NCBI GenBank assembly: GCA_047973385.1
Contig: JBKEBX010000012.1
Location: forward strand, 140,269-204,268
Direction of reading: 5' to 3'
DNA length: 64,000 bases
DNA from: Lachnospirales bacterium
Lineage (GTDB): Bacteria > Bacillota > Clostridia > Lachnospirales > CAMZNU01
This document shows positions 9,458 through 10,156 of the stretch, piece after piece. Numbering within the stretch: position 1 is the stretch's first letter; each line of letters begins with the position of its first letter. The position numbers and the translations under genes are program-made. The notes under the pieces are model-generated. The model saw nothing but the letters and a program-made list of their open reading frames with translations, did not search any database and was not told the origin of the DNA.

Positions 9458-10156
9458 ATGGTTTATAGCGATAGAGTTAATTATATGAGAGATTTTGAAG
9501 CTAAAGAAAAGATTATAAGTATATGTAAGGATTTATCTGATAAAGGATATATCATTGGTGAAGACGGTAGTATTAGTGTTAGAGTTTCAAAAGATACTAT
9601 TTGGATTACTCCAAAATCCTTTAATTTGAGTATGCTAACATTAGATAAATTGTTGAAAATTAATTTAGAAGGAAAGTTTTTGCAAGGCTCTTATAAATTA
9701 TATAAAAATGATTTTCTTCCAGAAGAATTGTCATATCATATAAACATATATAAGGAAAATTCTGAAATTGCTTCAGTAATACATTCTTATCCACCAAATG
9801 TTATTATTTATTCTATGAATGAAACAGATATTGAACAGCAAAGCTTTTCAAAACCAACATCTAGACTTGGTAAAATACCTTATGTATCACTTTACGGAAA
9901 TGATGATAGCTGTGTTTTAAAAAGTGAAATCGTAAATAGTTACAATGGTGTTATATTAAAAGAGTTGGGTTGTTTTATGTGGGGAGAAAATATTTTAAAA
10001 GCATATTCTAACCTTGATATTATTGAATACACAACAAAAATACTCAATCAAGTTAAGAAAAGTAAATGTATTAAATGTTCTTGTAAAAAAGAAGATAAAG
10101 AAGAAAGAAAAATTAGCTCAAATTTAAAAGGTGTTACAAAAATTGTAAAGCCATAA
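9458..10156 (+). CDS. Class II aldolase-fold paralog with degenerate active site (probable non-catalytic) and a Cys/Lys-rich C-terminal tail
   Basis: It aligns with the 5560..6393 aldolase but carries changes at key motifs. HAHP becomes HSYP, ANHG becomes KELG, GNIS becomes GSIS and TPTG becomes TPKS. The tail is KKSKCIKCSCKKEDKEERK. Confidence 0.7.
   Translation: MVYSDRVNYMRDFEAKEKIISICKDLSDKGYIIGEDGSISVRVSKDTIWITPKSFNLSMLTLDKLLKINLEGKFLQGSYKLYKNDFLPEELSYHINIYKENSEIASVIHSYPPNVIIYSMNETDIEQQSFSKPTSRLGKIPYVSLYGNDDSCVLKSEIVNSYNGVILKELGCFMWGENILKAYSNLDIIEYTTKILNQVKKSKCIKCSCKKEDKEERKISSNLKGVTKIVKP

Follow-up and report, generated by a model that had tools for sequence, protein, structure and literature searches.

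Bacterial microcompartments (BMCs) are named, and their substrates predicted, from a 'signature enzyme'; in the Planctomycetes-Verrucomicrobia (PVM)-like type this is a class II aldolase assigned to fuculose or rhamnulose phosphate, and the aldolase homolog of these BMCs has been treated as the enzyme that forms the aldehyde (Axen 2014, PMC4207490; Sutter 2021, PMC8217296; Asija 2021, PMC8156839). Here, we analysed a stretch of 64,000 nucleotides (64 kb) from a Lachnospirales bacterium (contig JBKEBX010000012.1), called the window throughout, in which a BMC operon encodes, beside a canonical class II aldolase, a second aldolase-like protein at positions 9458-10156. This 'window protein' has lost two of the three zinc-binding histidines and the phosphate ligands of FucA. 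It is very probably a divergent, C-terminally truncated member of a clade that we call HxY, after the H92-x-Y94 element of its signature (numbering of Escherichia coli FucA), lying in a metabolosome locus of the dihydroxyacetone phosphate (DHAP) shunt.

The PVM-like homologs of Hungatella hathewayi, Faecalibacterium prausnitzii and Enterocloster described in these papers fall in the same clade as the window protein. As in their loci, the window gene stands directly upstream of an aldehyde dehydrogenase (AldDH) gene, in an operon with PduL, BMC-H and BMC-P shell proteins and an iron-containing alcohol dehydrogenase (Fe-ADH), and its product carries an SDFEAKK-type N-terminal motif and a tail motif with the core GVT. 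Unlike these homologs, the window copy lacks D155, the encapsulation peptide (EP) and the neighbourhood of BKACE, tripartite ATP-independent periplasmic (TRAP) transporter and DUF1537-type kinase genes, and it has a canonical aldolase as a neighbour. FucA, RhaD, DrdA (5-deoxyribulose-1-phosphate aldolase, PDB 6btd) and MtnB have the same fold, and the window protein keeps their E73, H92, G28 and G156; unlike in these enzymes, H94 is replaced by Tyr and H155 by Leu, N29, T43, G44, S71 and S72 are all replaced, and there is no C-terminal helix to close the active site.

Inactive enzyme paralogs are an already established theme in BMCs. The second AldDH of the glycyl radical enzyme-associated microcompartment GRM1 and carboxysomal domains are precedents for scaffolds (PMC4207490), and the RPI of the sugar phosphate utilization (SPU) type, an inactive paralog, complexes with DERA (PMC11585597). 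Like the window protein, SPU RPI, the GRM1 second AldDH and the defunct carboxysomal domains are deficient in catalytic residues and encoded in a BMC operon beside active cargo, and they are proposed scaffolds or partners; the likeness is one of principle only. Unlike SPU RPI and the GRM1 AldDH, the HxY proteins have a different fold, their substitutions are conserved across a large clade, and they are usually the sole copy in their locus. The carboxysome scaffolds CsoS2 and CcmM, in which disordered regions with repeated short motifs and conserved cysteines accompany an oligomerising domain, offer an analogy only: they are not homologous, and where they repeat their motifs, the window protein has one copy of its own (two in some HxY members). 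Within PF00596 itself, the adducin head domain is a non-catalytic member with an assembly role at the spectrin-actin junction and a disordered Lys-rich tail (PDB 8iai). It is among the structural neighbours of the window protein, although here too the likeness is in principle only, adducin being eukaryotic and cytoskeletal, with no common context or tail motif.

Our search of open-access papers recovered no report of ligand loss in BMC aldolases, and a large, conserved HxY clade that is common among human gut metagenome contigs, in which the presumed signature enzyme is without its metal and phosphate sites, is apparently unreported. If the clade lacks both sites, as its 87 loci show, the substrate prediction for PVM-like BMCs, including those of F. 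prausnitzii and H. hathewayi, needs revisiting.

Fold and ligand positions of the window protein

The window protein matches PF00596 (Aldolase_II) over residues 17-195 (E = 2.7e-25, 89.7 bits against a cutoff of 22.2) and is 29% identical to its canonical paralog in the operon (BLASTP 5e-36). Its AlphaFold2 (AF2) model has a mean predicted local distance difference test score (pLDDT) of 87.7, with residues 1-202 confident and the tail (203-232) disordered. The best structures found with Foldseek were 2irp, 2flf, 1e4c and 6voq (E 1e-11 to 1e-14), template modelling (TM) scores against enzymes of the class II aldolase superfamily ranged from 0.65 to 0.84, and the neighbours included FucA, YgbL, adducin heads, the Fe dioxygenases POD and TqaM, and the dehydratase APIP. 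The protein is a stably folded member of the PF00596 superfamily, and the comparison with aldolases that an earlier note on this DNA had proposed for a model of it thus returned the class II fold, FucA included.

Residues were mapped by BLASTP to the paralog, by HMMER to the PDB chains 2irp, 6voq and 6vop, and by MAFFT with E. coli FucA and 150 relatives, and these three independent alignments gave identical substitutions (Table 1). One of three zinc ligands is retained (H92, as H109), all five phosphate-pocket positions (N29, T43, G44, S71 and S72) are changed, and the catalytic glutamate E73, acid/base and fourth ligand, is kept as E90. The ligand losses and the retained glutamate reported in the earlier note, where they had been read by eye, are therefore confirmed. 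The note had also considered that the metal ligands might lie at shifted positions; a shifted three-histidine site is impossible because the whole protein holds just two histidines (H94 and H109 in its own numbering). With two of three metal ligands and five of five phosphate ligands failing, the window protein falls outside the catalytic zinc aldolases and, judged by its residues, should be unable to act as a FucA-type zinc- and phosphate-dependent aldolase. This bears out the proposal that it is not such an enzyme, and the operon has another aldolase gene whose product keeps every ligand.

The gene itself is intact. An open frame of 232 codons in stop-rich DNA of 30% GC has a chance probability of about 7e-10, so a chance open reading frame (ORF) is excluded. 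The gene lies 38 nt downstream of a gene for a solute-binding protein (SBP)-like product and 81 nt upstream of the AldDH gene, and no terminator-like site was found on either flank. The intact frame, the good Shine-Dalgarno sequence and the lack of a flanking terminator suggest that it is maintained.

The HxY clade, its tail and its loci

A word-indexed homolog search returned the window protein as its own sole match, the exact protein being carried by one genome, and a scan of Joint Genome Institute (JGI) metagenomes, with alignment of the window protein and its closest relative (P0002), found no close relatives. When 1.84 billion representatives were searched in full with HMMER, 1686 matched; the best 150 of these were aligned, and 43 have the same substitutions as the window protein. 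They define the HxY signature, which in FucA numbering reads S29, P71-[ED]72-[DE]73, H92-x-Y94-P95 and [DN]155-G156-C157, and which is preceded by an N-terminal Y-x-S-D-F-E-A-K-K. Conservation was measured on 47 HxY members, non-redundant at 80% identity. The acidic residue at 73 and G156 are invariant (100%), as is Y94 (100%), followed by S31 (98%), S29 (94%), H92 (94%), D27 (91%), C157 (87%; specific to the clade, and C172 of the window protein), H77 (85%) and D/N155 (85%), the values for Y94 and S29 being partly circular since both residues served to select the set. By conservation, the columns surrounding the former metal site rank in the top 7-22%, and phosphate position 43 ranks near the bottom.

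In a neighbour-joining (NJ) tree, built without bootstrap, the window protein and P0002 fall inside a clade of 41 leaves, 39 of them of HxY type. Its sister clade, of 27 leaves, comprises canonical BMC aldolases, the active copy of the window among them. P0002 pairs with the window protein, to which it is 50% identical, and shares its features; on its 1.5-kb contig, AldDH follows downstream and non-coding DNA lies upstream, with no BKACE gene directly upstream. This placement and the shared substitutions indicate that the 'degenerate' residues are shared derived characters of the clade, not signs of recent decay. A recent duplication of the neighbouring aldolase is rejected by the same tree and residues, and the two aldolase-fold genes of the window appear to be ancient paralogs. 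The earlier note's pseudoenzyme, understood as the product of local decay of a paralog, is thus upheld for the loss of the zinc and phosphate sites and contradicted for its origin, the protein nesting in an old clade in which its substitutions are conserved. At the level of the family, the old metal site seems remodelled and under constraint, not simply dead.

One intermediate sequence (P0064, 265 aa) keeps T43-G44, S71-S72 and E73, has Ser for N29, Tyr for H94 and Asn for H155, and ends in a Cys-rich linker and an EP; by its residues, the two histidines may have been lost more than once, or stepwise. All BMC relatives, canonical and HxY, share with both window copies a conserved N-terminal Y-x-[ST]-D-[FY]-E-A-K-K, which is absent from FucA and from one aligned PDB relative; it may be an interaction surface specific to BMCs.

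Beyond the fold, full-length HxY proteins carry a tail with a Cys-rich stretch, a short motif ([L]-x-G-[VLM]-T-x-[LI]-[IV]-[RK]-P-G), a Pro/Ala linker and an amphipathic encapsulation helix (..VMAEVVRR..), in this order; in P0013 the terminal helix spans residues 254-270 with pLDDT 84-93. The motif lies in a low-confidence, disordered stretch of the models, as is typical of short linear motifs. Across 160 loci, 114 of 163 aldolase-fold ORFs contain the pattern [LIVFM]-x-G-[VLMI]-T-x-[LIVM]-[IV]-[RKHQ]-P, against 2 of 8835 others, and these two look like fragments of aldolase genes. The motif is also present in the canonical BMC aldolases of Lachnospiraceae. The window protein, which the earlier note had ending at ...KEERK, in fact runs on as ISSNLKGVTKIVKP, so that the conserved LKGVTKIVKP had been overlooked; residues 225-232, GVTKIVKP, fit G-[VLM]-T-x-[LIV]-[IV]-[RK]-P. 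The model has no helix after residue 202, the linker and EP of the relatives are missing, and the 81-nt spacer after the stop codon encodes no remnant of an EP. On this comparison, its Cys/Lys-rich tail is a truncated form of the shared BMC-aldolase tail.

Two side observations concern the tails of other members. One locus (L026, 902-2059) and P0018 have two copies of a motif variant, GLTGLYHP(A/S)GG, in a single tail, which would give multivalency. The long members P0016, P0017, P0029, P0037 and P0039 carry 2-6 repeats of C-x3-C-x2-C-x4-C-[TS]-[EH]-R-R, which may bind Fe-S or metal, the spacing resembling the CX3CX2C of radical-SAM proteins.

A survey of one genome per GTDB species together with JGI metagenomes yielded the 160 loci, of two conserved types. 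Type B comprises 87 HxY loci from Faecalibacterium-like human gut contigs, H. hathewayi, Acetivibrio, Oscillospiraceae and others. Its upstream components are a cupin, a DUF1537-type kinase, an Asp/Glu racemase, a TRAP transporter, GntR and BKACE; BKACE is followed by the HxY protein, AldDH, shell genes, PduL, BMC-P, a pyridine-nucleotide-disulfide oxidoreductase (encoded between the shell genes and Fe-ADH) and Fe-ADH. In all 76 other loci whose upstream DNA reaches far enough, BKACE immediately precedes the HxY gene; TRAP and GntR genes accompany it in 38 of 38 type B loci, and AldDH directly follows the HxY gene wherever DNA is available. No canonical aldolase lies within 10 kb in 86 of the 87 other HxY loci, the exception being L005. 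The clade is found only in BMC loci, which answers a proposal of the earlier note, namely that the degenerate paralog be checked for co-occurrence with BMC genes in related genomes. Type B matches the PVM-like BMC of the literature in organisms and core genes, and its BKACE, TRAP and DUF1537-kinase module points to an acid-sugar or beta-keto-acid substrate, not to fucose or rhamnose.

The window copy shares with this clade the signature residues S29, P71-[ED]-[DE]73 and H92-x-Y94-P95, its position in the tree, the tail motif and the adjacency to AldDH; it departs from it in three features, D/N155 (Leu), the EP and the BKACE neighbourhood.

Possible roles of the window protein

Our preferred reading, which we hold tentatively, is that the window protein serves as a non-catalytic adaptor in the BMC lumen. 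An oligomerising aldolase fold would present the locus's only copy of LKGVTKIVKP, either by itself or combined into mixed tetramers with the active, EP-bearing and motif-less aldolase, and would help to tie AldDH or Fe-ADH cargo to the aldolase core. The aldehyde-forming step of the locus appears to be covered by the canonical paralog, and in both loci with two aldolases (the window and L005) the tails are complementary, the canonical protein having Cys and EP without the motif and the HxY protein having the motif. The hetero-oligomer with the active aldolase suggested in the earlier note is possible in the window; since 86 of 87 HxY loci have no canonical aldolase nearby, it cannot be the general mode of the family. 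As for the partner of the motif, Fe-ADH is named among the BMC proteins without an EP (PMC4594438), and it is our lead. In 90 loci with enough downstream DNA, motif and Fe-ADH occur together in 66, Fe-ADH alone in 8, neither in 16 and the motif alone in 0.

Several observations weigh against an adaptor. The association between motif and Fe-ADH is confounded by phylogeny, all 16 loci without Fe-ADH appearing to be Bacillales. The former metal site is conserved, not relaxed, as one would expect of a functional pocket more than of a pure scaffold. Of 34 members compared, the window copy diverges most, keeping 32 of 48 clade-conserved positions (G225, T227 and P232 of the tail motif among them) where the others keep 37-48. 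It also has the most AT-drifted composition of 17 operon proteins (FYMINK residues 0.41, GARP residues 0.11). Its EP is lost, so that encapsulation would depend on piggy-backing. The divergence and the loss of the EP would also fit a gene on its way out.

A wider version of the adaptor idea, which we regard as fairly unlikely, is that no HxY protein is an aldolase and that the clade forms an oligomeric organising hub of a widespread gut metabolosome, its tail combining a docking motif, Cys or Fe-S elements and an EP. The motif would then dock cargo or shell, possibly the EP-less Fe-ADH, as a heterotrophic counterpart of CcmM and CsoS2, and the window copy would be reduced to fold and motif, co-assembling with the EP-bearing active aldolase of the DHAP shunt. 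If this were true, the signature enzyme of PVM-like BMCs (F. prausnitzii, H. hathewayi) would be mis-assigned and their real aldehyde-forming step still to be found. With its oligomeric hub and its defined short linear motif, the clade is a testable assembly element that could serve the engineering of synthetic metabolosomes, and the window is a natural experiment, with a working, EP-bearing aldolase and a look-alike that lacks the zinc site and carries the motif in one locus.

The conservation of the old metal site speaks for a remodelled enzyme or small-molecule binder, in which the three-histidine zinc site and the phosphate pocket would have been exchanged for a site of His, Tyr, Asp and Cys with acidic residues, perhaps to hold a harder metal or to accept an acid-sugar substrate without phosphate. 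HxY would then be a true signature enzyme or a regulatory ligand sensor, and the window protein would retain some activity; we consider this rather improbable. In its favour, constraint is strong on the metal-site columns and weak on position 43, 86 of 87 loci have no aldolase-fold gene beside AldDH other than that for HxY, which is constantly coupled to BKACE, a DUF1537 acid-sugar kinase and a TRAP transporter being encoded close by, and the fold hosts other chemistries (the Fe dioxygenases POD and TqaM, the candidate decarboxylase YgbL and the dehydratase APIP). However, the conservation of Y94 and S29 is partly circular, and the case weakens further for the window protein, which has Leu in place of D/N155 and lacks 16 of the 48 conserved positions; the partner genes for BKACE, kinase and TRAP transporter are absent from the window, where the canonical aldolase already covers the aldehyde-forming step.

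The same departures from the clade could mean that the gene is a decaying relic, carried in with the AldDH module as an HxY-type locus recombined with a DHAP-shunt locus, and now without a role and drifting towards a pseudogene. In favour of this are the lowest retention of clade-conserved positions, the loss of D155, EP and linker, the lowest GC content at first codon positions (GC1) of four operon genes measured, the highest FYMINK fraction of the 17 operon proteins, the occurrence of the exact protein in one genome only, with no close relatives from JGI metagenomes, and a gene order that differs from both conserved locus types. Nevertheless, the frame has remained open behind a good Shine-Dalgarno sequence in stop-rich DNA, the fold core is kept and modelled with confidence, the ten-residue tail motif is exact to its last residue, and the sister P0002, although only 50% identical, shows these features too and likewise adjoins AldDH, the lineage having persisted through much divergence; we judge a relic unlikely.

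The earlier note's third idea, that the Cys/Lys-rich tail is a redox or metal-binding module conferring a new function, is very improbable, even with three cysteines within six residues and the possible metal or Fe-S repeats of long HxY members, since the cysteines (spaced C-x2-C-x-C, not CxCxC) become Y, H and S in P0002, lie in a segment with pLDDT 52-60, number only three where a conserved set would need at least four, are spaced unlike those repeats, and belong to linkers that are generally Cys-rich in BMC aldolases (5.5% Cys in PMC4594438), many HxY members having 0-2 tail cysteines. Taken as a whole, the earlier interpretation is partly supported.

The window operon and DHAP-shunt metabolosomes

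The operon runs from about 100 to 13569 and begins with genes for an ATP-binding cassette (ABC) sugar transporter (Table 1). The shell, PduL, AldDH and Fe-ADH genes around the window gene place it inside a BMC operon, as had been noted earlier. Kinase, isomerase and aldolase correspond to the three steps of the DHAP shunt, or 5-deoxyribose salvage (PMC6079011); in the window, the kinase and isomerase would supply a ketose-1-phosphate to the canonical aldolase, which is likely the working DHAP-shunt aldolase, and whose tail has a Cys-containing linker and an amphipathic, EP-like end without a GVT motif.

Table 1. Features of the window operon and of the aldolase-like gene, with positions in the window.
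Feature	Positions	Strand	Details
MtnK/DrdK-type kinase and MtnA/DrdI-type isomerase	3228-5542	+	TIGR01767 E=1.6e-124; TIGR00512 E=6e-120
Canonical class II aldolase	5560-6393	+	N29, T43-G44, S71-S72-E73, H92, H94 and H155 all present
Four BMC-H shell genes	6408-7624	+	
PduL phosphotransacylase	7634-8287	+	N-terminal EP-like helix; PF06130 E=1.3e-71
SBP_bac_1 family protein	8313-9419	+	No signal peptide; directly upstream of aldolase-like gene; ORF called from 8250
Shine-Dalgarno-like GGTGGTG	9443-9449	+	8 nt before ATG; read from sequence
Aldolase-like ORF, divergent HxY-clade member	9458-10156	+	232 aa; ATG start, TAA stop
Class II aldolase fold domain, residues 1-202	9458-10063	+	AF2 pLDDT 84-98 over residues 11-200; Foldseek
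S38 at phosphate ligand FucA N29 (GNIS to GSIS)	9569-9571	+	Alignments
K53-S54 at phosphate ligands FucA T43-G44 (TPTG to TPKS)	9614-9619	+	Alignments
P88-E89-E90 at FucA S71-S72-E73	9719-9727	+	General acid/base Glu kept, both phosphate serines lost
H109-S-Y111 at FucA H92-x-H94 (HAHP to HSYP)	9782-9790	+	First Zn ligand kept; second is Tyr, clade-invariant
L170-G171-C172 at FucA H155-G156-L157 (NHG to ELG)	9965-9973	+	Third Zn ligand is Leu; Asp/Asn in clade
C204-x2-C207-x-C209 in Lys-rich disordered linker	10067-10084	+	Not conserved in closest relative
LKGVTKIVKP, short linear tail motif of the clade	10124-10153	+	Sole copy in the window; protein ends here
Acylating AldDH	10238-11689	+	N-terminal EP; directly after aldolase-like gene, as in HxY loci
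BMC-H with N-terminal extension, BMC-P, Fe-ADH	11708-13569	+	

The front of the locus (transporter, kinase, isomerase, canonical aldolase, shell genes, PduL and SBP) is that of type A, and its back (HxY, AldDH, BMC-H, BMC-P and Fe-ADH) resembles type B. Type A comprises roughly 70 loci in Lacrimispora, Hungatella, Paenibacillus, Gracilibacillus and others, with a single canonical aldolase and the order ABC transporter, MtnK, MtnA, canonical aldolase, AldDH, four BMC-H, PduL, BMC-P, (SBP) and (Fe-ADH). No homologs of BKACE, TRAP, GntR, the DUF1537 kinase, the racemase or the oxidoreductase were found in the 64-kb window. Percent identities of the window proteins to type A versus type B do not discriminate between the two (AldDH 64 versus 63, PduL 53 versus 48, BMC-P 77 versus 75, Fe-ADH 70 versus 60).

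DHAP-shunt genes joined to a full metabolosome were seen in the window (97-13569), in L006, L009, L012, L015 and L019 and in about 65 others, amounting to roughly 58 GTDB species and 12 metagenome contigs. From this arrangement one would expect a BMC that takes 5-deoxyribose, 5-methylthioribose or a related 5-deoxypentose and forms acetaldehyde or methylthioacetaldehyde, and our search of open-access papers found none linking microcompartments with the DHAP shunt.

Two further proteins of the operon deserve mention. The SBP_bac_1 protein, without signal peptide or lipobox, has conserved counterparts in 33 type A loci, where its gene as a rule stands between those for BMC-P and Fe-ADH, and all copies begin at the mature domain (..LKVLAVADPAV..), which suggests a ligand-binding or structural role in the cytoplasm or the lumen. 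The BMC-H protein encoded at 11708-12127 has an N-terminal extension of roughly 50 residues rich in Lys, Thr and Asn, an unusual feature for a shell protein of the related loci, where its best match is only 42% identical.

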